Below, piece after piece: positions 9,770 to 56,357 of a stretch of 64,000 nt of DNA. The stretch is from positions 47,463 through 111,462 of IMG/VR virus record IMGVR_UViG_3300020109_000007; one strand, written 5' to 3'. The stretch comes from a virus. Lineage: Duplodnaviria > Heunggongvirae > Uroviricota > Caudoviricetes. The notes under the pieces were generated by a model, which searched no databases, had not been told where the DNA came from, and worked only from the letters and a program-made list of their open reading frames with translations. The position numbers and the translations under genes are program-made. The number at the start of each line of letters is the position of its first letter. Position 1 is the first letter of the stretch.

Positions 9770-9876
9770 TAGTTCTCCTAATATGGAGGAGGGCTACGGT
9801 CTCGATCCGTATCCGTGGTATTAGCACGAACCTTTTCTTTAGCAAAGAAAGACAGGTCCCACCTGCTTAACCCTCC

Positions 9877-10140: not shown

Positions 10141-10586
10141 TAAAAGGGCACCTCATCATTTAAAATATATACTACAGGTTGAAAGTTGATGGCTTCTTCT
10201 TCTAAGATAGCGGAGACTATCTTCCACTCTCCGCCAGCTAAACCACATCCGATTAGCGGAAAAGCTACCTCACCTCGCACATTCTTGTTAATTAAGCTAA
10301 AACCCTTACGAAGGGCTCGATAGTCGACGTGAACTCGATCAGTTCCGTAGAATTCTTGCCCAACTAAATTAAGAATAATATGACTCTCGCAGTCTGCTCC
10401 AATAACAGAGCCTAGCGTGAGTCGATTTTCCTCATATGCTTCTCTGTAGATCTCAAATGCTCTAGGATACTTCAGTCGAATCGCCTTAGCAACTTCAGAG
10501 CCCATTACTCCTTGAGCATTCACACAATGGCAGATGTACTTAGCTTCTGTATTCAATAGATCACCGTATCGGTAGTCAATTTGCAT
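10140..10586 (-). CDS. Macro domain (ADP-ribose binding/processing) protein
   Basis: HCVNAQGVMGSEVAKAI and PLIGCGLAGG motifs. The likely start is at the internal Met near 10586. Confidence 0.55.
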   Translation of the reverse strand: MQIDYRYGDLLNTEAKYICHCVNAQGVMGSEVAKAIRLKYPRAFEIYREAYEENRLTLGSVIGADCESHIILNLVGQEFYGTDRVHVDYRALRKGFSLINKNVRGEVAFPLIGCGLAGGEWKIVSAILEEEAINFQPVVYILNDEVPF

Positions 10587-13536: not shown

Positions 13537-14108
13537 TAGACTATCCTATTATATTTCTTGATATTATCTTCTGGAGATAAATATTGTAAATTATTTTCTA
13601 CATGTAACCCACATACTTCTACACCTTGAAGTGGTATAATATGATCTACATGAAAGCCTTTTGGACAATTAGCGTATATGCGAGCAATTTCTTTCAAATT
13701 TGCCCATTTGGGTATACTACCTAACCTTGCACTTTTGTATTTAGCAGTTCTAGCTGTTTGAGTAACATAGCTTCTGCTATAGTGACAAGTCTTACAATAA
13801 GCATTGTGACCATCTGAACGGTTTTTATTTAAAGCAAAAGAAGAAATCTGTAAAGTTTCTTTACAGGAAGAACAATTTTTTAATCCTGCTAATTTTAGTA
13901 GCCAAGTTGATAACTTTTCTTTTCCTACTTTATCGGGAAAATAACTTGCTAGTATACTTAGCCGCAGTATGTCCGTACTCTTCTCTTAAATTGTAAGAAC
14001 TTTTACTCAATATATCTAGTAATCTATTGTAGGAGTAGCCCTTGTTATCTAACAAATAAGGGATTTCTCTATTATAAGATATTATAATGCTATCTAATAG
14101 ATCTTTCA
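13537..14108 (-). pseudogene. HNH homing endonuclease pseudogene (frameshifted)
   Basis: Own translation: frame A reads MKDLLDSIIISYNREIPYLLDNKGYSYNRLLDILSKSSYNLREEYGHTAAKYTSKLFSR*. A second frame continues through RLSILASYFPDKVGKEKL...NCSSCKETLQ...PKWANLKEIARIYANCPKGFHVDHIIPLQGVEVCGLHVENNLQYL. That frame has no Met, which explains its absence from the ORF track. Confidence 0.6.
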
Positions 14109-34989: not shown

Positions 34990-35286
34990 ATCCGTAATAA
35001 GTCGTTTTTCTAGGCTTTATCTTAGAAAACATAGGTATATAGTCCCTAAGACTACAAAAGCCAGCGTAAAATAACCCCATAAAGGGCACCTTCCATATCT
35101 CATTCATAAATCCTTGCCGAGTCTTGGATGACGAGGTCACTCGGCGAACCTCGGGAAGTCAAGCCGCTTGGGCTACTTCCATGTCGTTATCGTTGACACT
35201 TACGTTTTTGATCTCTAAGCGGATCACACTATAGTCTCTTACCTAACTTTCATAACTAATCGAACCCAGTTCTACCCCTCATAGTT

Positions 35287-35325
35287 TTGGTGGAGTAGGA
35301 GGGAGTCGAACCCTCGTGTTAGCTT
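35287..35325 (-). ncRNA. tRNA 3'-half remnant (CCA, acceptor 3' strand, T-arm only)
   Basis: tgg-t-ggagtag-gaggg-agtcgaa-ccctc. No complementary 5' acceptor strand exists. It overlaps the 3' end of HNH gene 35330..35719. Confidence 0.4.
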
Positions 35326-35329
35326 ACTA

Positions 35330-35719
35330 TTATAGGTCGTCCTCAACTATTCTTAAATGAGGGTAGTGTACTTCCATATGACAATTATGACATAGTAAAT
35401 CACACTTGGCTATTTCGACCCTCAAGGACTCTCTGGACCTAGTTACACCTTGCGATATTTCAAAGTCTTTTTCTTCAGAGTTTTTATGGTGAAAAGTCAG
35501 AGCAGCTAAGTTATTTTTATATCCGCAAATTTCACACGCTAATAACCTACCAGACTCCTGCAAAATGTCTTTTATAGTACTAGTCTTAGCAGCTTTCTTT
35601 ACTGCATGGTAGCAATATCTACAATGTGCTTTATACTTTTTAGTACCTTTAGGGGTGTATCCATTGGAGTAAAACTCTTCTAACGGTCTAGGTACTTTAC
35701 AAGTCGCACATACTTTCAT
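35330..35719 (-). CDS. HNH endonuclease (zinc-binding type)
   Basis: CRYCYH...CEICGY...HHKN....CDLLCHNCH. Confidence 0.55.
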   Translation of the reverse strand: MKVCATCKVPRPLEEFYSNGYTPKGTKKYKAHCRYCYHAVKKAAKTSTIKDILQESGRLLACEICGYKNNLAALTFHHKNSEEKDFEISQGVTRSRESLRVEIAKCDLLCHNCHMEVHYPHLRIVEDDL

Positions 35720-41651: not shown

Positions 41652-41972
41652 TTAACCATTGAGTCCCTCCATTAAGTCCTGAATACCATCGCGAAGCTTC
41701 TTTAGGTCCTGTTTTCCACTCTTAGCGAGAGTTGGCACGTCGATGCCAAGCCATGCGCTAATCTGAAGGACCATCTCTTCTTTCTTCTCGACAGGTTCCC
41801 CTGTTTTGGTCAATCGTTCCGGCGTCTTGTAAACGCCTTCACTAGAAAGCTTTGCGATGATGGACTTTACGCTTTTACCAGTACGCTCTGCGATTGCAGC
41901 TACTGTATCTTTAGAAGGGTTAGCTTCATACTCGGCTACAATGGATTCTGTTAACTCATCTGTGTAATTCAC
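41652..41972 (-). CDS. Hypothetical protein with HeH-like motif
   Basis: IAERTGKSVKSIIAKL. Confidence 0.3.
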   Translation of the reverse strand: MNYTDELTESIVAEYEANPSKDTVAAIAERTGKSVKSIIAKLSSEGVYKTPERLTKTGEPVEKKEEMVLQISAWLGIDVPTLAKSGKQDLKKLRDGIQDLMEGLNG

Positions 41973-42391
41973 CTCTTATTCTCCCACATATAGGTTATAT
42001 AACCTTCCATTGCGCGAGCCTCCATCTCCCACGGAGATAGGAAATATTTTTCGTCATACTCGTCAGAATTATCAAACAATTCTCCCTTCCACAGTCTCTT
42101 TCCAAGCTGCGAAACATCCACGAGTTCGCCATGCTTAAACTGTCGAAGATGAGTCATCTCATGAGCTACATGAGTTATTAGATCCTGCTTAGGGAGACCT
42201 TTTTGAATTTCGAGTATGAAGCAGCCATTATTATATTTCTGACAATTACTTGCTTGTTCAGTCCATCGCATATAAGCTGTAAAGCACTCCACATGCAGTA
42301 AGCGCGCCGAAAACTCAGCGCGCTTTACTAACTTTCGAGGACCCTTAATCAGCATCGTCGTCATAGAACTTAATAGGCGAATGACTATCAA
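41969..42391 (-). CDS. Hypothetical protein with HExxH zinc-metallopeptidase-like motif
   Basis: HVAHEMTHLRQF. Confidence 0.3.
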   Translation of the reverse strand: MIVIRLLSSMTTMLIKGPRKLVKRAEFSARLLHVECFTAYMRWTEQASNCQKYNNGCFILEIQKGLPKQDLITHVAHEMTHLRQFKHGELVDVSQLGKRLWKGELFDNSDEYDEKYFLSPWEMEARAMEGYITYMWENKR

Positions 42392-42717
42392 TGGCCTCGA
42401 TTAGATCACCCAAAAGCTCATCCTCTTCACCATCTAGAGTACGAATCTCGTAAATCTTGCGAAGAAGTACTCCCAAATACTCTGCCTCATCAAACGAAAA
42501 GAGTGTAGGATCAATTACAGTCTGTACAGGCACGTTAAAATCTCCTTTTCTTGAGGTCACATTATAAAGTAGATCAGAAGGTCAGTCAACAACTTAATTT
42601 AACAGAGCTAAAATCACCATCGCGATAAGTAGTCCTACAATAGGATAGTAAATATAGTCGTCTGTTGCTGTCCAGCGAGGTGAGAAGTCAATATTGCAGA
42701 TAGTGTCAATCATACGA

Positions 42718-43197
42718 TTAATCATTTTTAGTCTCCTTCTGTGCGAGAGCGGCGCGGTTCCTGAATTGCACGTCGGCGATATATCCGAGTGTCCCAAACC
42801 GACCGATCCGTGCCCGGCTTTCTTCTACGTGCGTCTCGCCACAAAGGTCATGAGCATAGACGTGAAGCCAATCATCCAACGCTGTGACCGAGCACTCCAA
42901 CGCCTCCCGCAGCCGCACATTCTCCCGCTCCACCTCATCGACCGATCGCGCGGGATGGGGCGGGGTTGTGCGGCGGTTCCAGGTTTCCGCTAGCAGCGGG
43001 CGCGGATCATCGCCGCAAGCATAGCGAAGACCAGTTGATGCCCCGCAAAGCTGGTGAGGGCATTGGATAAAATGTCCACCATGATCTGGACTGTCGGGAT
43101 CGTCGACATATCCAAACACCGGGTCGTCCCCGCCACAGAACGGACACGGCTTCAGCGTTTTCTGTTCATTATTCAGTGTCATTTCAATCTCCAGGCC
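42718..43197 (-). CDS. Lar-family restriction alleviation-like protein, GC-rich insert
   Basis: LKPCPFCGGDDP...C..C....G...A...AETWNRRTT matches the Lar Zn-ribbon N-terminus. The C-terminal two-thirds is markedly GC-rich. The start is reassigned to MTLNNEQ, which has a GGAG RBS. Confidence 0.5.
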   Translation of the reverse strand, partial: GLEIEMTLNNEQKTLKPCPFCGGDDPVFGYVDDPDSPDHGGHFIQCPHQLCGASTGLRYACGDDPRPLLAETWNRRTTPPHPARSVDEVERENVRLREALECSVTALDDWLHVYAHDLCGETHVEESRARIGRFGTLGYIADVQFRNRAALAQKETKND

Positions 43198-43225
43198 CTC
43201 AGTATATTGCAACTGAGGGCTTATA

Positions 43226-44020
43226 TTAATTTGAGAGAAACGGAATAGGAGCCTGACTCCCCAGATATTGAGGTAGTTCGCCGTTCCACGTTTCAATAGC
43301 ACGCTGCTTTAGAATCTCAGGGTTGGCACGAAGTGCCGCAGCTTCAATTTCAGTTGCTTCAGCAAGACCCCGGGCCTCGGCAATACGAGCACGTGAGTTT
43401 GCCTCTACCGTAGCGACGTTAGCCTCAGCTGCAAGAGCCTCCTGCTCGTTCTTAATCTTCATGTTAATCTGATTGAGAATGGTCTCTGGAATCTGAATAG
43501 AGCCTGCCCAATAAAGTTGCTCAACGTGAAGACCAAAAGGCTCAAAGTAAGCACGAACCGTTTGCAGAGCCTTATTAATCAGGACCGTCTTACCTGGCCC
43601 GTAGATTTCCTCTACAGTCATGTTGGAAGCAGCCTCTACGAGAGCAGATCGAACTGCGTTGCGAAGGGGTCCATTAACGATTCCCTCCATATCTGTTCGG
43701 TATTTCTGAAACAGAACAGGAGCCTTTACTGGGTCCACTCGATAGGCAACAGAGACGTCCCCAGACACGATCAAACCACTGCGATCCTGAAAGCTGAAGG
43801 TCTCTTCGCCTGCCCAAGCATGAGTGCTAGTATAGATGGGATACTCATAAATATCCACGCCGAACATAGTCTGATAAGTGCCTACGCCTAGCGCCTGCTC
43901 CTGCACACCAGCACCGGAACCGTAACGGTTCACCTTAACACCGACGTGACCAGGGTCAACTCGTGTACACGCTCCCAGAGCCAGAGCGGACAGGGCAAGT
44001 AGAATAACCTTGTTCTTCAA
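43226..44020 (-). CDS. SPFH/band-7 family lipoprotein
   Basis: Lipobox LALGAC, band-7 core and a C-terminal coiled coil rich in A/E. Confidence 0.65.
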   Translation of the reverse strand: MKNKVILLALSALALGACTRVDPGHVGVKVNRYGSGAGVQEQALGVGTYQTMFGVDIYEYPIYTSTHAWAGEETFSFQDRSGLIVSGDVSVAYRVDPVKAPVLFQKYRTDMEGIVNGPLRNAVRSALVEAASNMTVEEIYGPGKTVLINKALQTVRAYFEPFGLHVEQLYWAGSIQIPETILNQINMKIKNEQEALAAEANVATVEANSRARIAEARGLAEATEIEAAALRANPEILKQRAIETWNGELPQYLGSQAPIPFLSN

Positions 44021-44347
44021 TTCAAATACTCCTTAAATACAATGTAGTCAAAAGTTGCTAGTAGGCCCGCACCGATGAAAACTCCAATCAGTGCTAGGTC
44101 ATTTTGCAAGTTAATCAAATAGGGTACACCAAAAAAGGTCAACAATACATTAATTACGATAGTTACGTATAAAATCCAAGCTTTACTCATTTACCTTCCC
44201 ATTCTATCTGGATTGGTGATCCAGCTATAATCTAATGCGATCTTACTTAGTTTTTCATTTTCTTTTTGAAGCTCTTTGATGAACTTTACGATCTGCTCAA
44301 CGTCCGTTAGTTCTTTGCCTGGGTGCCAAGGCTGCTCATAATCCTCC

Positions 44348-44800
44348 TTAGCTTGCCGAAACAGTCTTGTCAAAGCGTCGTTCACTCTTAGTCTCCAACG
44401 GAGGAATAGTGCTAATAGTAACGGCGTAAACTGCAAATAGAAGTAGCATATGGCCTACAAGAAAGAAAATATTCGTTACAGGATCGACAATTGTTGCCAA
44501 AATCTGCAGCCAAGCCAAGAAGAAGAACACTAACCTAACTATAAGATCAAAAGTACTATCAGCAGGTATAAACATAGACTGAAAATAATGTGCTTGAGCT
44601 AGTGTAAACACGAACATACCTGCAGCCACTATCAACCAAATAGTACCCCCCGAGACAACAGCATCTGCAAAGCAGAAGAGCCACCCTAAAGATAAGGCTT
44701 CTCGGGCAAACTTATACTGATTCCAGTTTAGCGCCTGACACGCTCGAATAATAAGAGGATGAAACAGTGTTTTCCCTACCCAGGCGTCAAAGGATCTCAT
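44348..44800 (-). CDS. Multi-pass membrane protein
   Basis: Four hydrophobic segments. Confidence 0.35.
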   Translation of the reverse strand: MRSFDAWVGKTLFHPLIIRACQALNWNQYKFAREALSLGWLFCFADAVVSGGTIWLIVAAGMFVFTLAQAHYFQSMFIPADSTFDLIVRLVFFFLAWLQILATIVDPVTNIFFLVGHMLLLFAVYAVTISTIPPLETKSERRFDKTVSAS

Positions 44801-45206
44801 TTTTAAGTGTCTCCAAAGCTTTGAGTTCGCTACCCTGCAAGAACTCGTCGTCGATCGGACCTAGCCCAACAGCCGTAGTAGTAGTGCAATCAAAAACTGT
44901 ATATCCGCAGTCATCTACGATAGTAGCTCCCATATATGGGAGGTACTTCTCGTAAAGCCGCTCTAGGTCCTGCACCGTATCTACGACTAGCGTAATCTTA
45001 CGAGCGTCATTTCCTCTACGGTAATCGTGCATAAGCTGGCAATACGCCTCATCGCCCCACCAGTTTCTATCAGTATCCCAGCCGAAACGATCCTCGGCGT
45101 CCCACCAAGCATGAAGAAAAGCGTGTCCCGCCTGAGCAGCCAGCTTTCCCTCATACTTCATCTTTCGAAGAGTCTCGCGACAAAAGATAGCGTACATCTT
45201 AATCAT
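44787..45206 (-). CDS. Peptidyl-tRNA hydrolase PTH2-like
   Basis: GKLAAQAGHAFLHAW and C-terminal LVVDT...G.T..TAVGLGP. Confidence 0.5.
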   Translation of the reverse strand: MIKMYAIFCRETLRKMKYEGKLAAQAGHAFLHAWWDAEDRFGWDTDRNWWGDEAYCQLMHDYRRGNDARKITLVVDTVQDLERLYEKYLPYMGATIVDDCGYTVFDCTTTTAVGLGPIDDEFLQGSELKALETLKNEIL

Positions 45207-45472
45207 CTAGTAACTCCTGCAGGACGCTTTGGGCCAACTTCACTGATTTCGACGACTCCATCGAGAGGTTGTCCCGTCTCGTCATAGAAGGTAAGTCCAT
45301 AGGCTCGCGCATCCAGAAGGGTCTTCCGCCGTCTCTCATATGGACGCTGTCCCAAGATGGCCTGAGCCATATCGCTGTCGGAACCGTAAGCGCTAATGAT
45401 GCTTCGTGCGAGGTCACTAGTGATGCCCTTTAGTTGCTTTTCATTCTGAAGTCGAATCTTGGCGTTTTCTGC

Positions 45473-45886
45473 CTATTGAAGCTTAGTGATTACAGCCTTA
45501 GCAAAAACTTCTACTTCTTTGAGTTCAGTATAGCTAGACTGACCGTCGATGTAATAAATCACAGTATTCTTGATATGTGTTCTACCACCATCAATAGGAG
45601 TTCTAAAATATTGAGTGATAGCTAGACGTATACCGAGCTTCTTATTTTGAATAGTATATCTATCCTGACTGGAATACAGGCTTCCCGTCCTAATATTTCT
45701 ATGAGTCTGCATAGACCAGTCATCTGGATAATCTTCAATACTACTTAGAATAAGTTGTTGAAGATCAGTGAACTCAGGCTTTTTAATGAAATTCTCCTGC
45801 ACAACGTCGGAGTCGTCGAAAAGGTAATATTTACCTAGCAGACCAAATAGGCAAGCGGCCCCCGCAAAGCCGATCTCAAAAAGCAT
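45473..45886 (-). CDS. Hypothetical protein
   Basis: 137-aa ORF. Confidence 0.3.
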   Translation of the reverse strand: MLFEIGFAGAACLFGLLGKYYLFDDSDVVQENFIKKPEFTDLQQLILSSIEDYPDDWSMQTHRNIRTGSLYSSQDRYTIQNKKLGIRLAITQYFRTPIDGGRTHIKNTVIYYIDGQSSYTELKEVEVFAKAVITKLQ

Positions 45887-45965
45887 AGATAGATTTCCTT
45901 CTTTGTTGGCTCATTATACAAAGAAAAGGCGACTGAGTCAACAGTCGCCTTCAAGAATGCTAAAA

Positions 45966-46477
45966 TTACTTGGTGAATTTCTTAGCTATGGCTGTTGTAG
46001 ACTTGTCTACTCCACTCATAAATAGAGTGAGCGCTAAGATACCTAGAAGGGTAGGAACAGAAATAGGCCAAAAGGCAGAAATCCAAAAAATATAGCCTCC
46101 CTCATTCACAACATAGCCATTACCTCTTTCATGTTGATCGTGCTTTTCAAAAATAATGGATACAAAAGCGGTCAGACACGCCATACACACATAAGAAGTA
46201 ATATAGAGCCACATTATGAGATTCTCTTTGCCAAAGTAAAAGCGAGGTTATCCATTCTGCTGCACAGAAAAGAAAAACCATAGACTACGACCATACCCGG
46301 AATAATTATAGGCCACATAATTGCAGGAAACAGTACATCTGGGTCAGTCCAATCGGAAGACTGAGACGCGCAACTTTCTCCATGCCGAGCCAACGTCTTC
46401 TTCTTTTGAAGAACTACAGCCATAAAGGCTGTAAGCATGGCCATAGAGAAGTAAGAAATTATAATAAGCAAAATCAT
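45966..46477 (-). CDS. Two adjacent small membrane proteins (45966..46214 and 46214..46477)
   Basis: Each has two TM segments and similar topology. Confidence 0.3.
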
Positions 46478-46896
46478 GTCAGCAACCTCACGTCTAGATC
46501 GGGGTAAAAGGACCGCAGCAAAGATCGAGTCTTACGAGCCGCCATTTCGGCTCCTACAAAGCTAGAGATTTCCTGGGAGAAATGCGGACCTGCAGAGGCA
46601 TATCGGGAGTCAAAACCGTCAATATAATACTTCCACTCTCCCTCGTCATACTCCAGAGCAATCTTCTTCGCACCCTTTGCCGGAAAGTGAGCAGTAGTAT
46701 CACTGATACTCCACTCATCTGGCTGATTTCGAAGATAGTCTAGAATGAGGTTAAGATTGGTTGCGTCTACACGACGCTGTCCCTTAGTGTAAAGCTCCCA
46801 GCGGTTACGAACGAAGTTCGTTGGCAGGAGAATTATAGTCATGATAATAGACCATAGAACGATAGGAATTAGTAGTAGCAAACTAATCGAAAACAC
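46474..46896 (-). CDS. Membrane-anchored hypothetical protein
   Basis: N-terminal TM, 140 aa. Confidence 0.3.
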   Translation of the reverse strand: MFSISLLLLIPIVLWSIIMTIILLPTNFVRNRWELYTKGQRRVDATNLNLILDYLRNQPDEWSISDTTAHFPAKGAKKIALEYDEGEWKYYIDGFDSRYASAGPHFSQEISSFVGAEMAARKTRSLLRSFYPDLDVRLLT

Positions 46897-47380
46897 TCTT
46901 TGATCTCCTCATCATTTCATCTTCTATTGCTTCTAGCACTTCTAGCGGCGTCATATCTTGAGAGATAATTTGTTTGTCAATCTCAAGACGATATGCAGCC
47001 TTTCGCCAAAAGTCAAGACCATTGGCAATGGGTCTCAGATAAATCTGTATCTTCATCGCTTGACTGAATTAAGAATAATCCACGATCCAGATACTAGAGC
47101 TAGGACGATCGCCGGAATAGGCTGAACCGTAACAGGCACACTAAATACTAGCAGACATACTAGTAGAAAGAGTACGAGAGTGGCAACGAACCCGAAAGCC
47201 TGAGCAGAAAAGTAAAAGAACTCGTTCATAGAACACCCACTACAATATATTCACTCTTGATAGAAGCACCTCGAAGATATACGAGGTCCTGACGAAGTTT
47301 CCACAGCTTATCGTCTACGCAATGAACGGCCCAGTCTAGATCGCTCGAAGAAGTTTTAGAACGATAAAGAATCATATACA

Positions 47381-47641
47381 TTATTCATCGTCCTCCGAGT
47401 AAAAACTACTCGTCACTTCATCGTAACCTTCCCAGTTATCCACGCCACACATTTCAAGCTGTGTAAGAAACTTATCACGCTCCTGAAGACGATAAAACTC
47501 TTCCAGAAGGGTTCGGGCTCCGGGGTGTTTTGCGCTGGCAGTTTGAATAAGTTCCTGCAAATCTTTCAGCTCGCCTGGCAGAATGACTGCGAGAGTTCCA
47601 TTCTTAAACTCCCACATAGCAAGTGCTTGAAGAATATTCAT
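47381..47641 (-). CDS. Hypothetical protein
   Basis: 86-aa ORF. Confidence 0.3.
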   Translation of the reverse strand: MNILQALAMWEFKNGTLAVILPGELKDLQELIQTASAKHPGARTLLEEFYRLQERDKFLTQLEMCGVDNWEGYDEVTSSFYSEDDE

Positions 47642-47687
47642 GATTTCTCCTCTTGATAAGTCATATTAAGCCAAACGAGCCGACGAG

Positions 47688-48032
47688 TCAAGAGCTAATT
47701 TCAATCTTAGTCGTGACTCTCAGCTCAGTATACTTAATTAGAGTATATTTGGAGTCATAGCGAGCTTCTACCCAATCTAGCATGTCTTGCTTGCTCTTAA
47801 ACTTATGCAAGTTCTCGACAGTCTCATCGTAAGCAGGATAACCATGTCCTGGATTTGTACGGCTGCGCTCATCACCGGGATGATGAATAGTATGTGTGAT
47901 GATAGCCGCGTACTTTTCATCTTGCGGAAAAGCGCAAGGGCCTAGACCACAAAAACGACAAGTCCTGGGATAGGTTTTTCCATCTGCCTTCAGCTTTTGG
48001 TTACACAAGTTGGGTCCGTCATAGTCGTTCAT
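47688..48032 (-). CDS. Hypothetical Cys/His-rich protein
   Basis: 114-aa ORF. Confidence 0.3.
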   Translation of the reverse strand: MNDYDGPNLCNQKLKADGKTYPRTCRFCGLGPCAFPQDEKYAAIITHTIHHPGDERSRTNPGHGYPAYDETVENLHKFKSKQDMLDWVEARYDSKYTLIKYTELRVTTKIEISS

Positions 48033-48727
48033 CTAGTATATTCCTTGCAATAATGCCTACTTCCGGCCAAAGTATCTCCGTATCTAGGATCAAGCTTAGA
48101 TACTAAATATCTCCACTTACGATCAATATGCCAGTATAGAGGGTACTCACCGCAATACTTACAAGTCGTCGGAGTCTTCGACATAAGGCCAGTTTCCCTG
48201 AATTTGCCCACAATCGAGACAGAAGATAAAAGACATGTCGTCCCCGCAACCTAGCGGAATATTCTCGGGATAATATCCCGAGTGTTCTTCTCCATCAGCA
48301 AAGACGGCATCAAAACAATCTCGAGCATGAGCGGAGATCTGCACGAGTCTCTCGCTCTTACAGGTTTGACATGACATAAGTAGCAATTCCTACATAAGTT
48401 AGAGAGTGAATAAGCTGATCTAGGCCTGTGAGTTGCCAAAACTCACTGTGAGTTGTTGCACCCCACCCATAATGAGCATTAATGTTCATCTTTGCCCAGT
48501 CCGTGTGATAGTGCACGATTGCTTCAACTGCTAGCACGACCACGATAATTGGCACGGAGATGCCAAACAGTAGGAGAATGATGGCGGTCAATAATACATG
48601 CTGACCTGTATGGACGAGTCCTCCAAGATGCCCATAGAGGTCCCTTTATTTTGCCGCTGAAAAGGTGGTTGATAAAGAAAATCTGCTACGAAGTGCTTTA
48701 CAAAAAGAGCAGCCAGCAACCAGAAGA

Positions 48728-49307
48728 TCATCGGTTGTTCTTCCAATCGTAAAAGGATTCGCCTATATCAGCGAGTTCTTCTTCAAGAAGAGCTACTACA
48801 AAGACTAACACTAGAATAACTACGCTAACTTGCCAAGGCACAAACGCTACAACTAGCACAACTCCTGCGATCATTGCAAGAACTAGAGTTGCGACCAGAA
48901 ATAGACCCGTAAGTAGATTCTTCATCGGTCGTTCTTCCAAGTATAAAAAGCTTCTCCGACAATTGGGCTAAGCATAAAGAATCCTACTAACACTAGAATA
49001 GCTAGTGGTAATACAGCCAGAGCCTTAGCTCCTAACGTAGCTACCACTAGCGCACCTAGAGCTATAATTATAGCTAATGCGGTGAGGATGAGAAACATCC
49101 CTGTAAGCATGTTCTTCATTACTTAATCCTTATCAAACTGTATACAAAAGCTACCATTACCGTAAAAATAATAATAACAAGTAGAATCTGCGCTAGGATA
49201 TATCCTTTTGTCGCCAACATGAGAACCAGCATAATTAGGATGGATACTGTAACGACAGCCATAACGATACGAATAGCCTTAAGTAGGTCTTGCCTATCAA
49301 TAGTCAT
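48728..49307 (-). CDS. Three tandem small membrane proteins; the first two are paralogues
   Basis: 48728..48940 and 48922..49119 share MKN.LTG.FL..T........ALV..VL.....FY.WKN.R. 49119..49307 is a third TM peptide. Confidence 0.35.
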
Positions 49308-49417
49308 AACGCAATTCTTTCTCCAGGATGAAGGCGGCTTCTTGTAGATAGCGATCTCGCATCGTTCGAAGATGCGCTACGATTTCATCATATGCTTGGT
49401 TAATAGCAGCTTCATTA

Positions 49418-49816
49418 TTAGTCAATTGAATACACCTTTTGAACAAAACGACGACGAGCGGGATGCACGTCTGCGGAAGCGTGAGCCTCTTGATCGAGAA
49501 CCATGCCATTACGAACGGTCAGCACGTGACCCGAGACGAATACTAGAAAAGTACCGGAGCCTGAAGTTGAGACCCACTTGCGAACAGTCTGACGTTCGAC
49601 GGGCACCTCTTGCGTCAGATAACCGAAATCCTGAATAGACTTAATGATCTGCTCGTCATAGGTACGACGAACGTGACGCTTCTGGTGAGGCATCTTGTTA
49701 CGCTCGCAAGCAGCATGTGCTTGAGCCATCGTGACGTTGCTGGAGACAGCAATGGCAAGAACACCGCAGATGCCCATGCGACGCATATCTTCTGTGAAGT
49801 CGATCGGATAGTTCAC
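49418..49816 (-). CDS. Hypothetical protein
   Basis: 132-aa ORF. Confidence 0.3.
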   Translation of the reverse strand: MNYPIDFTEDMRRMGICGVLAIAVSSNVTMAQAHAACERNKMPHQKRHVRRTYDEQIIKSIQDFGYLTQEVPVERQTVRKWVSTSGSGTFLVFVSGHVLTVRNGMVLDQEAHASADVHPARRRFVQKVYSID

Positions 49817-49872
49817 GCTGTCTCTCCTTCTGATGTACTCATTATATGCAAAAACAGCAGCTCAGTCAACTG

Positions 49873-50226
49873 CTAGTTTCGACACTGGCGAATGAGACAG
49901 CGTCTCTCCACGAGTTGAGCCTGATCTAGGTCAAACACGCACTGGTTCTCGTCTGCGATTACTGCTTCTGTGTCGTATACAGAGATAGCAGCACCATACT
50001 GAGCAAGGTGAGTTCGAGCACGTGCACTGAACCAGCGACGCAGCTGGGCTAGAGACGTACAGCCAAATCGAGCATCTTCGAACGAGCTAAGATCGGGATT
50101 TTTCATGAAGGGATGGCGATCATAGTCGTTATAATCGCCCATCACATATTCAAAGTACTCGGTCTCATCGGCCACAATATTAAAAGCACCAACGCAATCT
50201 ACAGTCTCAACTCGATAGACTAGCAC
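49873..50226 (-). CDS. Hypothetical protein
   Basis: 117-aa ORF. Confidence 0.3.
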   Translation of the reverse strand: MLVYRVETVDCVGAFNIVADETEYFEYVMGDYNDYDRHPFMKNPDLSSFEDARFGCTSLAQLRRWFSARARTHLAQYGAAISVYDTEAVIADENQCVFDLDQAQLVERRCLIRQCRN

Positions 50227-50230
50227 GAGA

Positions 50231-51278
50231 TTACTCCCTAGTTACAGTGGTAAAAGTCGCACCCTTTAGTACTAGATAGCTATAACCGTAACCGTCATCT
50301 TCCTCACTTACGGTAAACATGATATTGACGGGCTTAGCGTCTGGAACACCGTTTTGATTAAGATAGTCGGCTACGAGCCTCGCAATAACTTCACGACTGA
50401 TCGTGCACGTCGTGGTAGTTACGATTTCTTTATCAATTTCCATATCATTCCTCTGAAAAGTCTAGTGGCCGAAATAGAGGCCGAGTCCAGTCGCGTTCAG
50501 CCTCTACCGAGGTATACCCACGCTCAATCAAACATCCCTGAATATATCCAAGCCAGCGATTAAGTTTCATTAGTGGAAGTTGATCTCGACAGCTGAACAT
50601 AAATTGCATTACGAATACCCATAGAGGGTCATCAGCCTCTACAGCTGGATCATCTAGAAGCATGTCACGGTAGCGCTCTGCACACTTATGCAGAGCGTGG
50701 TAATACTTACTTTCGCTCATCGGGACCTCCGCAGTACTCACAATACTCATCATCATAGTCCGTATAAACACACACGCCTACGGGACTCTCGTTGCACCTG
50801 TGACCGTGTTCTAGGTCAAAACCTGCTTTGGGGTCTTGAATAAGACTTCGTGCTTGCTCGTACAGCTTACGCACCCACTCTTGGCGATCAGCAGAAAGCT
50901 TGGCTAGATATTCACGAGCATGCTTGATCGCAAAGTCGTGCTTCTCAATTTGCTCTACGATGCCGACAGGCATCCAATTTTGCTTCTTCATGACCTCTTA
51001 ATCCTAATAGAGTTCTTCTTCTGTCCCAGAGTTTCCGCTAGACGATGTGCAAATGAAATTGCTTCTTGAAAGATGTACTTCTCACCTGCGGAGTCTTGAC
51101 TATATCTGCCTGAATTTGTAAAAAGAGTCATAGCATCATTCAGCGTAACCATAGCACTGTACCTAGGAGCATAACCACCAGGGCCCATAGTCATCGTTCG
51201 GTTTAGAACTACTTGGATCTTGTGCACAGTTCGTCTCCTTTTCGCACTCATTATACGCAAAAAGGCCGCCAAAGTCAA
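50231..51278 (-). CDS. Run of four small hypothetical genes (50231..50443, 50445..50771, 50707..50991, 50988..51278)
   Basis: Tightly packed minus-strand ORFs with overlapping stops and starts. Confidence 0.3.
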
Positions 51279-51304
51279 CGACTAAAGCGGCCTTTTCTTA
51301 ATTT

Positions 51305-51730
51305 TTAATCTTCGTATCTTGTAAGCTCTGGGTCATCATTCTCTAATATTAACATATCTCCGAAAGTACGACTAAGGGGCCCTTTGACGGCTTGATTTGC
51401 ATCGCTATAACTGGCGAAAGTAATACCTGAAAAATACCAGCGATCTTGGTCGTCCTGCAGATATAGAGAGAACTTTCCAGCGTCTTTTCCGTCTAGTTTG
51501 CTTTTAAATATAGTTCTCACCCTGCCCACATCGTAAGGTAGCTCTTCTGGATTATGATCGTCTACAAAATATTCTCCGATATTTTCACCTTGAAGATGTA
51601 GCTCTGCCCCAAAAGGAATACCTCCATATTGCCGAGCCTGTTTCTCACTTACATAACTAGTTGTAATATCATACTTTTCAGTTTTAGTCTCTACATAGTA
51701 CACTAGGTTTTCTCCTTTAATACAAATCAT
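51305..51730 (-). CDS. Hypothetical protein
   Basis: 141-aa ORF. Confidence 0.3.
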   Translation of the reverse strand: MICIKGENLVYYVETKTEKYDITTSYVSEKQARQYGGIPFGAELHLQGENIGEYFVDDHNPEELPYDVGRVRTIFKSKLDGKDAGKFSLYLQDDQDRWYFSGITFASYSDANQAVKGPLSRTFGDMLILENDDPELTRYED

Positions 51731-51772
51731 TTTCGATTTGTAAACATATCATAGTATGTTTTAGGCCAAATG

Positions 51773-52648
51773 TCAAGAATTATTTTCATCTAGGAGTAAT
51801 ATGTCGCAGTTAAATAACTCGGTTGCTCCACCAGTTCGTAAAAATTGGGGTGCGTATACCTTACAATCTTTATACTCTTCTAGAATCATTTGTTCTGCTG
51901 CTTCGGCTTCAGCCCCTATCACATACTCTTTCTCTAGAAGAATCTTGTAGCTCTTGCCACAGTTTGCTAGTCTTCTACTTGCGGATTTGTTAGTAATTCC
52001 AATCTTGTATAAGGTTTGAGTATTATCCCATATTCTAGCATAATATAGAATAGCGGGGCGACCGCGATTAAATCCAAATTTAGCGCAGCTAGGGCACCCT
52101 GATCCGTTTAGAATATCGTGGGGTTTGGGACTCCATTTATGGTCACATTCAGGACACTGATGTTCTAGGTGCTTCATCATGCCATCATATTGACCTAGAA
52201 CTACAAATTGTATTCCTTTGTCTAGTAACTCCTGCTTGTAGCTTTCTGTAGTTTTCTTTGCCATACCACTACAAACGGGACACGATCTAGGATTTTTTAA
52301 CACAGAGCTGGGTTGAATTTTATATTGATGCCCTTCCTCACATTCGTGAAGAATTTTTGTGTGTACTCCCGCGTATACTTCTAACGGAAGAAAGGTAGAG
52401 TTTAATTTCTCTAAGTCAGCTAAATAACCTTCATGAGTACGCCTTCTCTGACCTCCTGAACAGCTAGAGCATTTTACTTTGCCAGCCATCATACGTCCAC
52501 GATCAGCTTCAAACTCGTGGCCTGAGGCACAACGATATATTTGTCTAGGCGAGTTCGCTAAAGTATCGTACTTTCCAATTGCAGTAAAGGGTATATTCTT
52601 TGCTGTGAGTTTCTCATTATGTATGCGTAATAGTTCTGCGGCTTTCAT
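51773..52648 (-). CDS. GIY-YIG-like (T5orf172-type) putative homing endonuclease with three Zn-ribbons
   Basis: CASGHEF...CSSC, HECEEGHQYKIQPSSVL...CPVC, CPECDHKWSPKPHDILNGSGCPSC, ILYYARIW...YKIGIT and GGATELF. Confidence 0.5.
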   Translation of the reverse strand: MKAAELLRIHNEKLTAKNIPFTAIGKYDTLANSPRQIYRCASGHEFEADRGRMMAGKVKCSSCSGGQRRRTHEGYLADLEKLNSTFLPLEVYAGVHTKILHECEEGHQYKIQPSSVLKNPRSCPVCSGMAKKTTESYKQELLDKGIQFVVLGQYDGMMKHLEHQCPECDHKWSPKPHDILNGSGCPSCAKFGFNRGRPAILYYARIWDNTQTLYKIGITNKSASRRLANCGKSYKILLEKEYVIGAEAEAAEQMILEEYKDCKVYAPQFLRTGGATELFNCDILLLDENNS

Positions 52649-53475
52649 GATAACTTTATAGCATGTTTAAGAGCTTATGTCAAGGATTGACTTTTGGTTA
52701 GCAAAAATAGAATATTTAGATTTTTGGTTTAAAGAAAAGCACTTTCTACAGTTTATAATAATACCCTAGGATAAAATTATCCTATTGACTTTATGTGATA
52801 AGTGTGATACTATGTAACAAGTTACTGATTAGAGATTATGTTATTCAAATCCTCTGTGAGACGAAGCGTCTCACTTACACAGAATAAAGATGTTTACTGA
52901 CGACTGGTAGGCTTCGCCGATAAAGAGTCACGTCTTTATCTTCAGTGTTTATTGAGACCCTTCGTCTCACTTATTGATAAAACTTCTAAAAGCAGATAAG
53001 AAGTTACATAGTATTTCACTTTTGGCTACGAGTGTATCTTTTCAAGATCAATATCTACGGAAGCTAAAATCAATTCGTGTATAATTCGGGCTAAGAGGCT
53101 CCAATTCTGTGCAAGGGTCCCGCCGCCCCGTCTCTTTCTCTAGCTCTCTTTCAATAGAGGCCCGCGGCTGTTCGCAGCTAGCTGGGCCATTTTCACGTCT
53201 ACGACGTGGGGTTGCCCGAAGTGCTGCAGTTGGGTTTCACTGGTAGAAGGAGCAATTTCTCTAGGTTGTCTCAATCGTCGTGTCGCTAGCTTCTTGCGGT
53301 TTCAGCCACCTGCGCGCGAAGCGCGGTAATTAGGCTGCAGCACCGCAGCAAATTTTTTAAAATTTCCTCAAATTTTGTGAAATCACGGCGCAGGAAACGC
53401 AATTTGAGCGCTTCTTTACAAATTAAGTCGAACAATAGCGATTTACCTTAGTTTTCACCAATTTTAAAAATTTCT

Positions 53476-53510
53476 CTTGACAACGCGTTGTCGACGCACT
53501 ACTGTCGGCG
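53476..53510 (+). promoter_or_regulatory. Plus-strand promoter-like module (variant: TTGACA-N17-TACTGT-CGGCGC)
   Basis: First member of the GC-region module family. The normal promoter TTGACTcgcgagctgattctagaTATAAT (53524-53552) follows, driving 53576..54197. Confidence 0.45.
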
Positions 53511-53575
53511 CAGGTGAATTTATCTGTTGACTCGCGAGCTGATTCTAGATATAATGAACGCACAAAGGAGAGATT

Positions 53576-53800
53576 ATGGGTCTGTTTAGTACTTTTCTAG
53601 TAGTAGAAGACGAGAATGACACTTTTGGCATCGGTCAGTACTTTCACGAGGAAGACTTGCCAGAAACCGTTGAGGGTTACCACTCTAGAGATATTCAATT
53701 TGATAGAGCACCAGATCTTGCGATTGGAGGCATTACACTGCTCGAACTAAAGCATCAGCTTCGCCAGCTTCTGGATCAGGTGGAGGCCTATGAGCGTTAA
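53576..53800 (+). CDS. Hypothetical protein
   Basis: AAGGAG RBS; 74 aa. Confidence 0.4.
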   Translation: MGLFSTFLVVEDENDTFGIGQYFHEEDLPETVEGYHSRDIQFDRAPDLAIGGITLLELKHQLRQLLDQVEAYER

Positions 53801-54197
53801 CTGGAACGAGCCAATCGAGGCCGTAAATCGTGTGACTGGTGAGGTCGTGCCTATGGAGCTAGCACGAGGACCCGAGAAAGACTATTGGGGCGGTCAGTCC
53901 TACTATACTAAAACAAGTCCTAGTACTTCGACAAGTAATAACGGCTGGCACGAGGATGGGGGAGACCATTGTAGTCATAATCAGTGGTACATTCGAAATG
54001 TGCCGAATTCCGGCGTAGCCGATGAGTTGGCACAACTGCGTCAATTTCGGGAAATAGCGCTACTCGTTGCTCCGGAACTCGCGCAGATGCCCAAATCCGA
54101 CGAGGAGATGGTCGAGTTTCTAGCAAACGCGTACTATGAGAGCGACGACGCGGATTTGCCCGCAATTATTCTAGCTGCCATGAAGTGGGCAAAATAA
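53790..54197 (+). CDS. Hypothetical protein, paralogue of 62511..63119
   Basis: PIEAVNRVTGEVVPM...YTKTSP...NGWHEDGGDHC..NQWYIRN corresponds to PLEAVEKATGRVVPV...HTKESP...DNWYLDGRDYC..DKWLIRN. Confidence 0.45.
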   Translation: MSVNWNEPIEAVNRVTGEVVPMELARGPEKDYWGGQSYYTKTSPSTSTSNNGWHEDGGDHCSHNQWYIRNVPNSGVADELAQLRQFREIALLVAPELAQMPKSDEEMVEFLANAYYESDDADLPAIILAAMKWAK

Positions 54198-54199
54198 TT

Positions 54200-54232
54200 A
54201 AGGCCGGGAATTGCTCCCGGCCTTTTTTATTT
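54200..54232 (+). terminator. Rho-independent terminator
   Basis: aggccgggaattgctcccggcct + tttttat. Confidence 0.65.
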
Positions 54233-54277
54233 GTCAAAAATTTTGACCGATGGTGAATAATTGACTTGACACTATTT

Positions 54278-55099
54278 TTATTCGGCGCTTAATAGTGAGG
54301 TTCTAGCACCTTTAAAACATTCAGTTTTACCATTTCTTTCAAACCAAGAATCTTCTGGTATGAACTGACTAACTTCCTTTTTAATATCTCGTTCAATATT
54401 TAAAGCCTCTACCAGCGTCGTACTAATTGAGTCTAGTATTCTATATTTCGGAGCACCGTTAAGGCGAAGTTTTATTGTCTGTTGTGTTATACCAAACTTT
54501 TTAAAGCTGCCAAAATCAACTAAGTATACTATAGTTTCTTTATTAGGATCAAACTTACCTCCAATATTAGGAGGTAGACCATTAGCTTCTAGCGCTGCGG
54601 ACCAAGACCCATATTGACGTATAATCCTAGAGCTATAAGGTTGTGGACAGCGCTCTTTTACTAAATAATTGAGCACGTACTGATTTAGTTCTTGTACTGA
54701 TGATTTCGGCGCTAGATTTTGGTGAGAATAACTTCCTGTAGGACTAGATTGATGACCTTGAGCTTCCAATACTCCTTTTTTAATCAACCTACTTATCTTT
54801 TGTTTAACTTTATCGTAGTTGCGATTCATCTTACTAGCTATTTCAGGTATAGATAATTTATACGTGTCTCTATATTCTATTAAATCTAACTCATCATCTA
54901 GAGACCAAGTATCTTTAGAAATGGTTGAACCAACTAATTTATTCCCCTGTACCGCAACAGCTCTATAAGTTCTATCTGGGAGTAAGGTTGTAATTTCTTT
55001 ATAGTTTAAACCTTGAAGTAGACTGTCTTTAATAAGTTGATTTTCTTCTTCAGTCCAAAATTTTCGTTGTGCCATGTTGATAGTACACTGAGTTGACAT
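54278..55099 (-). CDS. GIY-YIG-like (T5orf172-type) putative homing endonuclease with SANT-like N-domain; AT-rich gene inside the GC-rich segment
   Basis: RKFWTEEENQLIK...LLPDRTYRAV and IVYLVDFGSFKKFGITQQ. Confidence 0.45.
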   Translation of the reverse strand: MSTQCTINMAQRKFWTEEENQLIKDSLLQGLNYKEITTLLPDRTYRAVAVQGNKLVGSTISKDTWSLDDELDLIEYRDTYKLSIPEIASKMNRNYDKVKQKISRLIKKGVLEAQGHQSSPTGSYSHQNLAPKSSVQELNQYVLNYLVKERCPQPYSSRIIRQYGSWSAALEANGLPPNIGGKFDPNKETIVYLVDFGSFKKFGITQQTIKLRLNGAPKYRILDSISTTLVEALNIERDIKKEVSQFIPEDSWFERNGKTECFKGARTSLLSAE

Positions 55100-55233
55100 G
55101 CTACTGTCAAAAGTTAAATATTTCGAGGTCGTATGTAGCTTATAGTTGCATTACTACTGCACTGGTCGGCGCTTAGTCATGGAGACGATATATCAGAAAG
55201 GTGATGATATAACATATCAGAAAAATTTTTCTC

Positions 55234-55276
55234 TTGACAAAATCGCGTTAGTCCGTCAAAATCGGCGCCACGAAAA
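55234..55276 (+). promoter_or_regulatory. Plus-strand promoter-like module followed by hairpin + T-tract (55290-55330)
   Basis: tcTTGACAaaatcgcgttagtccGTCAAAATCGGCGCC, then aaagccgcca...tggcggcttt-ctctc. Confidence 0.5.
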
Positions 55277-55593
55277 AAGCCGCCAGAGGGCGTCCCCCGT
55301 GGCGGCTTTCTCTCGCTTTGCGTCTTTCGCAATCTCCCCGGCTCTTATCTGCAACAGGTTGAAAGGGGAGTGGAAAGGTTCGCGATTTAATGGTGCCCTT
55401 TTCCGCTTGCCGCGACACCTGCCGGTCAAAACCCCGGACGGACGATCCGTTTCGGGGACCGATACCTAGGCAGCTAATTTTAACGTGTCCGTGCCGACAC
55501 GGTAATCAAGAGCCGATTTGGCATCTATTTGCCGCCTCCCGCTCTTGATAACTCTCTTATATCAAACTTTCACTTGCCTGTCAACAACTATTT

Positions 55594-55860
55594 TTAACCG
55601 CCCGTAATTCGTCGCGCATAGTCGCTTACAGTCTCCCCCGGAAGCGGAGCTGGAATGAAGTGATTCGTTAGAGTAACAGACGGGTCCGTAATTGTAAAGG
55701 GGATTTCTTCGCCTAGAGCAAAAATCTGCTGCCGTTGTGCACGATAAGAGTCGCCATCATTTTCAACAAACTCTTGAATCACGTCAAGAGCTTCTTCAAT
55801 AGTGTCACAAACCCTAAGCTCATAGTCATAGTTAGGGTCAATCACAACAAACTTTGCCAC
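55594..55860 (-). CDS. Hypothetical protein
   Basis: 88 aa. A minus-strand promoter ...ttgatgaaaccattatagg...gtcaac lies upstream at 55873-55920. Confidence 0.35.
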   Translation of the reverse strand: MAKFVVIDPNYDYELRVCDTIEEALDVIQEFVENDGDSYRAQRQQIFALGEEIPFTITDPSVTLTNHFIPAPLPGETVSDYARRITGG

Positions 55861-55943
55861 TTGCTATCTCCTGTCTTGATGAAACCATTATAGGAGAGTT
55901 GAGCCGGACTGTCAACTACTATTTTCAGTCCGGCTCAATTTCT

Positions 55944-56357
55944 TTAGGCTGCCAGCGCCTCGACCGCCTCGGCAAGCGCCGTAAGCTGGCCCTTGCTGCC
56001 CTTGTCCAGCGTATCAAGCGAGCCATCGTCAAGGCCGACAGCGCGAGCGATACGGTCCACAAGATCGCTCTTGCGCGTTACCGGCGAGCCATCCTTAGAC
56101 GTGGGAACCTTGCGCGCATAATTGACATTCATGCGCGCCATCTTCGCCACGATCATGCGAGGGGTTCGCTCGCCCTTTTCAGGATGATTCATGCGTTCAT
56201 CGGCGGCTAGCCCCTTGGCAACCTCCAGGTTGCCGACGCCGCCGTTCGCTTCCACCGCTTCGCGGATAAGCTGCTCTTGCGCTTCCGTGTAATTCTTGTC
56301 CTGTTCCTTAGCCATTTTAAGAGTCCTTCTAAGTTTGTCTCTATCAAGGCGGCCCAT
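55944..56357 (-). CDS. Hypothetical protein, paralogue of 59831..60247 (probable start at internal MAKEQDKNYT)
   Basis: Shares DRDKLRRTLKMAKEQDKNYT and C-terminal DRIA...L........L..L..AVE.LAA. An AGAAGGA RBS precedes the internal Met. Confidence 0.4.
   Translation of the reverse strand: MGRLDRDKLRRTLKMAKEQDKNYTEAQEQLIREAVEANGGVGNLEVAKGLAADERMNHPEKGERTPRMIVAKMARMNVNYARKVPTSKDGSPVTRKSDLVDRIARAVGLDDGSLDTLDKGSKGQLTALAEAVEALAA

Follow-up and report, generated by a model that had tools for sequence, protein, structure and literature searches.

An untranslated spacer between the pre-early and early modules of an uncultivated T5-like phage as a probable transcriptional boundary and switch

Introduction

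How T5-type phages stop and restart the transfer of their DNA, and how they switch between gene classes with host RNA polymerase alone, is a question more than 50 years old. The injection stop signal (iss) region of T5, Repeat Region 3 of the left terminal repeat, was reportedly described by Heusterspreute and colleagues in 1987. Here, we describe a spacer without open reading frames (ORFs) at positions 52,649-53,575 of a 64,000-nt stretch of virus DNA (IMG/VR record IMGVR_UViG_3300020109_000007, positions 47,463-111,462; the whole stretch is referred to as the window). The reading that we favour, and hold to be reasonably probable, is that this is the pre-early/early boundary spacer of a T5-like phage and that it acts as a transcriptional boundary and switch.

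In T5, iss is annotated at 9,140-10,149 within a 1.8-kb untranslated region that follows the pre-early genes (bioRxiv 10.1101/866236). The left terminal repeat ends at 10,219, inside that untranslated region, and the early genes then follow. The sole comparative model (Davison 2020) was built on the DnaA boxes of all enterobacterial T5 relatives examined; for 25 T5-like phages, iss is defined there as an IRD'-52 bp-IRC' unit with paired DnaA boxes and a distant inverted partner, and also by DRE and DRD repeats and by the inner end of the terminal repeat (bioRxiv 10.1101/866236). The temporal promoter classes of T5 differ mainly in their discriminator (Klimuk et al. 2020, PMC7472727).

The succession of pre-early genes, a long untranslated region and early genes is found both in T5 and in the window, which makes the spacer, by analogy, the positional counterpart of the T5 iss-bearing untranslated region. 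In both phages a large untranslated region separates the A1 module from the early genes downstream, palindromes and inverted and direct repeats are abundant, GC content steps between the pre-early and early parts, and the untranslated region is better conserved than the flanking small ORFs. In contrast to T5, the spacer has no DnaA boxes, no IRD'-52 bp-IRC' unit, no distant inverted partner and no DRD or DRE repeats, and it has no sequence similarity to the T5 region; it conserves instead promoters, a GTAAC..GTTAC box, a covarying hairpin and two short boxes, M2 and M3. The orientation also differs: here transcription of dmp and then A1 runs towards the spacer, and that of the early genes runs in the direction leading off from it. 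Because only position and palindrome richness are common to the two, the spacer was not filed in the T5 iss family. The kind of region is thus known from T5; what is new is that it lacks DnaA boxes but has a conserved promoter-operator-hairpin unit, M2 and an antisense promoter class restricted to one module.

The early regions of T7 and T4 carry long RNase III-type hairpins and origins made up of a promoter plus an AT-rich stretch. The spacer resembles them in having a ~100-nt imperfect hairpin in a predicted non-coding early-region transcript beside strong host-type promoters. It differs in that there is no sequence or Rfam relationship and in that the hairpin lies in an antisense non-coding transcript, not between the genes of a polycistronic mRNA.

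Identity of the phage and position of the spacer

The spacer and the genes that identify its surroundings are as follows.

52,649-53,575, no strand: spacer without ORFs, the early-gene-proximal portion of the pre-early/early untranslated boundary region
51,773-52,648, minus strand: 291-aa first early gene, endonuclease-like, with DUF4379 zinc-ribbon, CapR and T5orf172 domains
56,987-58,660, minus strand: homologue of A1, the T5 pre-early DNA transfer protein (41% identity over 459 aa, E 3e-99)
59,152-59,664, minus strand: homologue of dmp (5'-deoxyribonucleotidase), 170 aa (BLASTP E 4e-10 to T5 dmp)

Judged from its genes, the window is from an uncultivated T5-like siphophage. The A1 homologue matches PHROG 1745 (DNA transfer protein) with an E value of 1e-146, and tblastn matches it to 1,134 phage records with T5-like phages on top. 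The real A1 has 556 aa; the call of a 662-aa ORF rests on a spurious TTG start. The closest A1 proteins from isolates are about 41-43% identical, and those of metagenomic relatives 52-70%. The dmp orthologues of the relatives are 71-73% identical and belong to Pfam PF26880 (Phage_T5_dNMPase). Close to A1 and dmp there are 120-aa paralogues that match A2 in size and position; homology of these to A2 was not detected by BLASTP (E 0.71), hhalign (probability 1.9%) or Pfam (no hit). The paralogues, of ~120 aa and beginning MAKEQDKNYT, share an 86-nt repeat (56,260-56,345 and 60,138-60,223) that covers the 5' untranslated region and the N-terminus. Megablast and blastn searches of the region and the surrounding 25 kb against 50,697 phage records gave no match. 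In what follows, the pre-early module comprises dmp, A1 and small genes and is GC-richer; the early module comprises small ORFs, homing-endonuclease-like genes and transfer RNA (tRNA) genes.

Metagenomic relatives are given here as L002, L004 and so on; with A1 as the query, IMG/VR returned loci in an alignment-based search and none in a single-protein locus search. With A1 placed on the plus strand, their order is terminase and portal (minus strand), small plus-strand genes, dmp, A1, a gene of ~130 aa, a gene-free stretch and then small plus-strand early genes. An ORF-free spacer follows dmp and A1 in all six independent relatives in which the spacer is seen whole, with lengths from 1.3 to 2.9 kb (L004 1.5 kb, L002 2.2 kb, L026 2.9 kb, L027 2.5 kb, L028 1.9 kb and L041 1.3 kb). 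The first gene past the L004 gap is an orthologue of the 291-aa ORF of the window (55% identity). The terminase and portal genes lie divergently upstream in the relatives, and a T5-type nicking endonuclease is found in L028, L043 and L044.

The pre-early module is richer in GC than the early module by 3-7 points in five of five relatives measured, and T5 shows the same offset (0.399 versus 0.356). As the offset is common to the relatives and T5, it is a property of these phages and not a sign of foreign DNA. An earlier reading of the DNA made without database searches (the sequence-only reading) had suggested two genome modules of different origin; the shared offset and a gene order that is syntenic across the clade do not support this.

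Extent and base composition of the spacer

In a six-frame scan, 52,662-53,575 (914 nt) contains no ORF of at least 60 aa, which bears out the ORF void claimed in the sequence-only reading; it is the longest such run in the window, the runner-up having 659 nt. The layout is that of a divergent intergenic region, with the 291-aa ORF beginning at 52,648 on the minus strand and a 74-aa ORF beginning at 53,576 on the plus strand. Comparison of the spacer with the spacers of the relatives by tblastx and sensitive blastn gave no coding signal and only short motif matches. An independent assembly, a Logan contig of 97,203 bp, is identical to the window over 41,773-56,328 with no mismatches, so the region is not an assembly join, the possibility that had been named as fatal to the original description. 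The end of this contig at window position 56,328 was considered as a genome terminus and rejected, the break being due to the 86-nt repeat of the two paralogous genes.

An abrupt compositional junction had been placed at 52,650, separating AT-rich DNA from a GC-rich right-hand part of ~11 kb. The step itself exists (GC 0.425 to 0.508), but binomial maximum-likelihood change-point analysis places it at 55,244, about 1.7-2.6 kb further to the right, and the GC-rich part measures about 8.8 kb. Between the spacer and the step, GC is 0.49 over 53,576-54,250 and then 0.35 over 54,251-55,150. Within the spacer, the early-gene side (52,649-53,084) has a GC content of 0.32, the AT-rich look of 52,975-53,084 being judged by eye, and the middle is occupied by the following segment.

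53,085-53,349, no strand: GC-rich (0.57) non-coding filler, sequence unconserved, structure ordinary

The segment 53,080-53,360 folds no better than shuffled sequences (z -0.8 and -1.1), and its reading as a structured RNA was rejected on these values (z about -1). The GC hairpins and T-run noted in the sequence-only reading are present, but jointly they are unremarkable against shuffles. The AT-rich runs that it placed at 53,340-53,470 also exist; they are the upstream parts of promoter copies.

Early-side promoters and the long hairpin

The early-gene side of the spacer carries two predicted divergent promoters and a long palindrome.

52,655-52,683, minus strand: P_early, sigma-70-type promoter of the first early gene (TTGACA-17-TATAAA, 6 nt, ATG at 52,648)
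52,785-52,832, plus strand: P_B, divergent promoter (TTGACT-17, TG-extended TACTAT) with a palindromic box
52,800-53,021, no strand: full imperfect palindrome of 222 bp with nested arms (inverted repeats I1, I2 and I13; DNA fold z -5.3)
52,856-52,970, plus strand: long hairpin of ~115 nt (paired 19-mers and inner palindrome), ~36 nt past the predicted P_B start
53,334-53,358, plus strand: hairpin GCTGC..GCAGC with T-run (GCTGCAGCACCGCAGC), from the terminator scan, a terminator-like end for P_B transcripts

The P_early hexamers lie on the minus strand at 52,678-52,683 (TTGACA) and 52,655-52,660 (TATAAA). The L004 counterpart (TTGACA-17-TATAGT, 6 nt, ATG; L004 15,044-15,081) has the same geometry, and the block aligns in three phages. 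Since the ATG lies 6 nt past the -10 hexamer in both the window and L004, the mRNA of the first early gene is predicted to be leaderless, and probably is so.

The hexamers and extended -10 element of P_B span 52,785-52,813 in the promoter scan. Directly 3' of them, and spanning the expected transcription start, lies the box GTAAC-AA-GTTAC-TGATTAG, which is probably an operator. The P_B hexamers and the box are also found in L004, L028, L041 and L030, always on the strand opposite the early genes. The putative terminator downstream, at 53,334-53,358, also serves as the A/T-rich flank in front of the promoter copy that follows; its block AAAAAATTTGCTG aligns in L004 and L002, and in L028 it was read by eye.

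Of the paired 19-mers in the sequence-only reading, both exist, but the second copy sits elsewhere. The self-palindromic 19-mer GTGAGACGAAGCGTCTCAC is at 52,856-52,874 and its inverted near-copy is at 52,953-52,970, not at 52,962-52,979; the 18-nt arms are 94% complementary, with 79 nt between them. The inner palindrome is as described there, with arms ATAAAGATGT and ACGTCTTTAT at 52,884-52,893 and 52,930-52,939. The palindrome as a whole exceeds that description, having outer 19-nt arms at 52,800-52,818 and 53,003-53,021. The hairpin unit folds at -48.5 kcal/mol (z -6.1 on the plus strand and -5.0 on the minus strand), and none of 200 shuffles folded as well. A second copy of the palindrome or of the 19-mers is absent from 51.5-64 kb and from the remaining window, and IMG/VR contains no exact copy of the 19-mer.

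The hairpins of the window, L004, L028 and L041 can be aligned and have in common the internal boxes TAATTACAC and GTGTCTATTA; the flanking stems diverge in sequence among the four phages, and the pairing is kept. In a core of 22 pairs, 93% of the cells pair across the four lineages. Eight pairs are changed on both sides, against 3.1 ± 1.3 in shuffled alignments (0 of 500 as many), and sliding the partners by 1-3 columns reduced pairing to 25-40%. When the non-homologous hairpin of L002 was part of the MAFFT alignment, RNAalifold predicted no pairs because of misalignment, and the analysis was repeated with the four alignable sequences. A covariance model (R1) scores the four hairpins at 143-168 bits. 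In a search of ~1.4 Mb of A1-bearing loci, the only comparable match beyond the four was L046, of the L028 lineage and with one mismatch; L030 and L013/L017 gave three partial matches, all short. In four phages (the window, L004, L002 and L028) the hairpin is centred 268-298 nt upstream of the first early gene.

In all four phages tested, the RNA hairpin from the P_B strand folds better than its complement (in L028 there are four G-U pairs versus none), a weak indication that the structure functions at the RNA level. At gathering thresholds, Rfam gave no hits in the region and likewise none in five relatives. A permissive Rfam search of the region gave a best E value of at least 0.3, which is noise, for example from a microRNA-precursor model that matches any long hairpin. 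The P_B leader with its hairpin is a candidate structured non-coding RNA (ncRNA), possibly of a new family.

The P+ promoter class and the M2 and M3 boxes

The pre-early side of the spacer carries members of a promoter family, P+, and two conserved boxes.

53,477, 55,234, 56,439, 58,776, 59,755, 60,322, 60,748, 61,669 and 62,448, plus strand: P+ copies
53,355-53,400, plus strand: degenerate P+ copy ending in CGGCGCAGG, with no good -35 (direct repeats D5 and D6)
53,462-53,514, plus strand: innermost P+-type promoter, TTGACA-17-TACTGT-CGGCGC, fused to M2
53,527-53,555, plus strand: near-consensus promoter TTGACT-17-TATAAT (11/12), predicted to drive the plus-strand 74-aa and 135-aa ORFs
55,142-55,276, no strand: conserved pre-early-side spacer core, with M2b at 55,142-55,172, M3 at 55,203-55,218 and P+ at 55,226-55,276
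55,142-55,172 and 53,487-53,511 (window); 14,005 and 14,070 (L004); 13,862 (L002): M2 sites
14,894 (L027); 2,468 and 2,502 (L030); 3,255 (L032): M2 sites in further relatives

The P+ family consists of an A/T-rich flank, TTGACA, a 17-nt unconserved spacer, TAAAAT and an invariant CGGCGC, usually followed by a hairpin. Nine to ten copies occur on the plus strand between 53,477 and 62,491, whereas the 52 kb of early DNA on the left has none. All of them sit between the pre-early genes of the minus strand, which makes them antisense to these genes and co-directional with the terminase and late genes beyond the module. Eighteen IMG/VR contigs with homologues of dmp and other pre-early genes also have the motif, and in a hand count from the hit lists 47 of 50 instances were antisense to dmp. 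Promoter-like sites in general are enriched in the pre-early module (32 versus 8.7 ± 2.7). In the T5 terminal repeat they are not enriched (43 such sites versus 32.5 ± 6.9 expected), and a repeated family was not seen.

Each promoter class has its own discriminator: GAG.. in sense pre-early promoters, A/T-rich in early promoters, CGGCGC in P+ and GTAAC in P_B. As in the T5 classes of Klimuk et al., these promoters are of the sigma-70 type with canonical -35 and -10 elements and the classes differ just downstream of the -10 element. Unlike T5, the discriminators here do not resemble ATATT, and the P+ class, which runs antisense to its neighbouring genes, has no counterpart in the T5 terminal repeat. 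Two other readings of P+ were considered. The exact TTGACA-17-TAAAAT geometry with its unconserved spacer disfavours a sense-strand terminator tail, and it favours a promoter over a T5-type nick site (T5 nicks expose 5'-GCGC).

The degenerate copy at 53,355-53,400 was assigned by eye against 53,462-53,514. Because the spacer holds these innermost members of P+, the module boundary defined by the class falls inside the spacer, at about 53,350-53,480. Past the promoter at 53,527-53,555 there is a ribosome-binding site AAGGAGAG and then the ATG at 53,576.

M2 is a box of 25-31 nt, GCGCCGAC(N0-3)AGTAGTRCGTCRACAAC, which is conserved in spacers that otherwise cannot be aligned. M2a is at 53,487-53,511, its minus strand reading GCGCCGACAGTAGTGCGTCGACAAC. 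A scan of IMG/VR for M2 gave 12 loci, about nine of which are chance matches in unrelated coding DNA; the genuine ones are only L030, L032 and L033. The M3 palindrome GATATGTTATATCATC adjoins M2b; L041 and L030 also have it, and L002 has a diverged copy. M2 and M3 are probably protein-binding sites. Window 55,221-55,268 matches the L004 spacer at 13,850-13,897 with 82% identity, and the GC change point at 55,244 falls within the conserved core. Some contigs end near P+ or M2: L005 and L006 at the equivalents of L004 14,008 and 13,853, and L042 at 794 nt into the gap.

Proposed function of the spacer and alternative readings

That the region is a regulatory switch between genome modules was one of the suggestions in the sequence-only reading, and it is the one that the analysis supports: the spacer lies between dmp/A1 and the early module, with divergent and module-specific promoters and conserved cis elements. 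We base this on the identity of the flanking modules, on the conserved position of the spacer, and on the elements kept between phages: P_early, P_B with its box, M2 and the hairpin, which also covaries. From these we infer that the promoters are active, that the hairpin works at the RNA and not the DNA level, and that the region acts as a switch.

The switch would most likely operate as follows. Terminators on the far side (55,270-55,310) would end pre-early transcription, and P_early (52,655-52,683) would start the first early gene, probably as a leaderless mRNA. About 100 bp away, P_B (52,785-52,813) would fire in the opposite direction under the control of its probable operator, the GTAAC..GTTAC box on the P_B start. 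The resulting non-coding transcript would form the ~115-nt hairpin ~36 nt from its 5' end, would probably end at the hairpin and T-run of 53,334-53,358, and would oppose read-through from the pre-early side. Beyond it, 53,355-53,555 would bear the innermost P+ copies, one of them fused to M2, and then the strong promoter for the inserted ORFs.

Several points weigh against this reading. No A2 homologue is demonstrated, which weakens the transfer of T5 two-step biology to this phage. The margin by which the P_B strand folds better than its complement is small (1-7 kcal/mol). The covariation comes from four lineages, and because the tested structure was built from the folds of these same sequences, the paired fraction is inflated; the hairpin of L002 is in the same place but cannot be aligned, and L026 and L027 have no clear hairpin. 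The putative terminator has a stem of 5 bp and runs into the upstream element of the promoter that follows. All promoters and terminators were called by their match to a consensus, and at five versus 2.7 ± 1.4 in shuffles they are not enriched in 52,300-53,900. Part of the spacer may also be filler, because its middle 265 nt are neither conserved nor specially structured.

The alternative to which we give most weight overlaps the favoured reading and is not exclusive of it: the spacer could be the functional equivalent of the T5 iss and/or the inner end of a long terminal repeat. We regard this, by analogy with T5, as possible but hold it only tentatively. The ~8.5-10.5 kb from about 63.7 kb to the spacer would then be the DNA transferred in the first step and would be present at both genome ends, and the palindrome or M2/M3 would act as DNA, pausing ejection or defining the end of the repeat. 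The position, after the A1 module and before the early genes, equals that of the T5 iss and of the end of the left repeat, and the T5 iss region is likewise dense in repeats, inverted repeats and palindromes (bioRxiv 10.1101/866236). The length of the candidate module fits the 8-12.9 kb of T5 repeats, and window 63,671-63,706 shows a 94% match to the intergenic region of L004 next to the terminase. Both the P+ family and the raised GC content keep exactly to that block, and M2 is kept as DNA in both orientations of its context. Against this, the DnaA-box pairs present in all 25 of Davison's T5-like iss regions are missing, the window contains no second, inverted copy of the palindrome, gene order and orientation are unlike those of T5, and homology to A2 is not demonstrated. 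Contigs from independent samples end in the spacer (L005 and L006, 155 bp apart, and L042), as a repeat end might produce; polymorphic insertions of homing-endonuclease genes there would explain these ends equally well, and the insertion in the window is at the same place.

A replication origin, also proposed in the sequence-only reading, would consist of the palindrome and P_B, primed by transcription (a promoter with AT-rich unwinding, as in T7 and T4) or based on the hairpin. A promoter is indeed followed by a stable hairpin and then by an AT-rich stretch, and the position of the hairpin is conserved. However, the DnaA consensus TTWTNCACA occurs nowhere in the 64-kb window (4.7 expected), and TTATCCACA allowing one mismatch is not found in 52-56 kb; iterons are absent from the region, which has only short repeats of two or three copies; and cumulative GC skew is monotonic across it, with no turning point and, as the sole local change, a positive patch over the plus-strand ORFs. 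T5 origins map near the genome centre (bioRxiv 10.1101/866236), and the neighbours here are homing-endonuclease-like and small ORFs, with no initiator gene adjacent. We therefore consider an origin very unlikely. As a separate observation, DnaA-box-like sequence is depleted throughout the window (five occurrences of TTATCCACA at one mismatch versus 13.9 ± 3.6). Still less credible is a functionless junction, made up of decayed genes, a seam of foreign modules or an assembly artefact, with a palindrome that is due to chance or is selfish, like a miniature inverted-repeat transposable element. The central 265 nt, GC-rich like the pre-early module, unconserved and unstructured, and the homing-endonuclease-like genes on both sides would suit it. 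Conservation largely refutes it, since P_early, P_B with its box, the hairpin and M2 are kept between phages with A1 proteins of only 53-70% identity; moreover, the independent assembly is identical, synteny and GC offset are common to five relatives and T5, and the palindrome has no second copy in the window or in IMG/VR.

A bolder version of the boundary-and-switch reading, which we offer as speculation and rather doubt, is that the palindrome is the core of an as yet undescribed, operator-controlled antisense RNA of the pre-early/early boundary which, with the P+ class and M2/M3, forms a DnaA-independent boundary or injection-stop apparatus of the T5 type. If so, counter-transcription and not DnaA binding would govern first- to second-step expression or DNA entry. 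If the clade also injects its DNA in two steps, DnaA boxes are not a universal stop signal; if it does not, the region is a well-defined boundary between temporal classes with a candidate new phage ncRNA. The spacer elements are concrete candidates for mutagenesis and binding assays.

Probable insertion, neighbouring genes and other features

The DNA between the spacer and the pre-early module contains the following features.

53,576-55,141, no strand: probable insertion, with two plus-strand ORFs (74 aa and 135 aa) and an endonuclease-like ORF
54,192-54,232: bidirectional terminator inside the insertion
54,278-55,099, minus strand: 273-aa homing-endonuclease-like ORF with PHROG endonuclease and D5-like regulator hits
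55,270-55,585, minus strand: candidate ncRNA A, with promoter TTGACA..TATAAG, ~270 nt of conserved non-coding sequence and a terminator, after the last pre-early gene

The M2 copies are 65 nt apart in L004 versus 1.6 kb apart in the window, and we infer that an insertion of ~1.5 kb split an ancestral spacer of ~1.4 kb, of which 55,100-55,593 (about 490 nt) is the pre-early-proximal piece. The insertion would have cut the spacer in two and so parted the GC step (55,244) from the gene-free stretch. The 135-aa ORF (53,790-54,197), a paralogue of a pre-early gene, duplicates the N-terminus of a 202-aa ORF (62,511-63,119). The 273-aa ORF has a D5-like regulator N-terminus and an endonuclease-like C-terminus, and GC is 0.35 over the gene. 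Both endonuclease-like genes that flank the spacer lie in low-GC patches (0.34-0.41), and the two (51,773-52,648 and 54,278-55,099) are consistent with mobile homing-endonuclease genes.

The candidate ncRNA A has no Rfam match. It has a promoter AAAATAGTTGTTGAC-17-TATAAT/G and invariant boxes ACCTTTCCACTCC and GCGAAAGACGCAA that are common to the window, L002 and L004, the counterparts being at 12,837-13,170 in L002 and at about 12,330-12,640 in L004.

Elsewhere in the window there are 29 tRNA genes, all on the minus strand, between 9,784 and 28,447. Permuted transfer-messenger RNAs (tmRNAs) point to an alpha- or beta-proteobacterial or a cyanobacterial host, and a permuted two-piece tmRNA lies on the minus strand at 35,068-35,380 (Rfam RF04321, 90.6 bits), with the tag VNDNDMEVAQAA.

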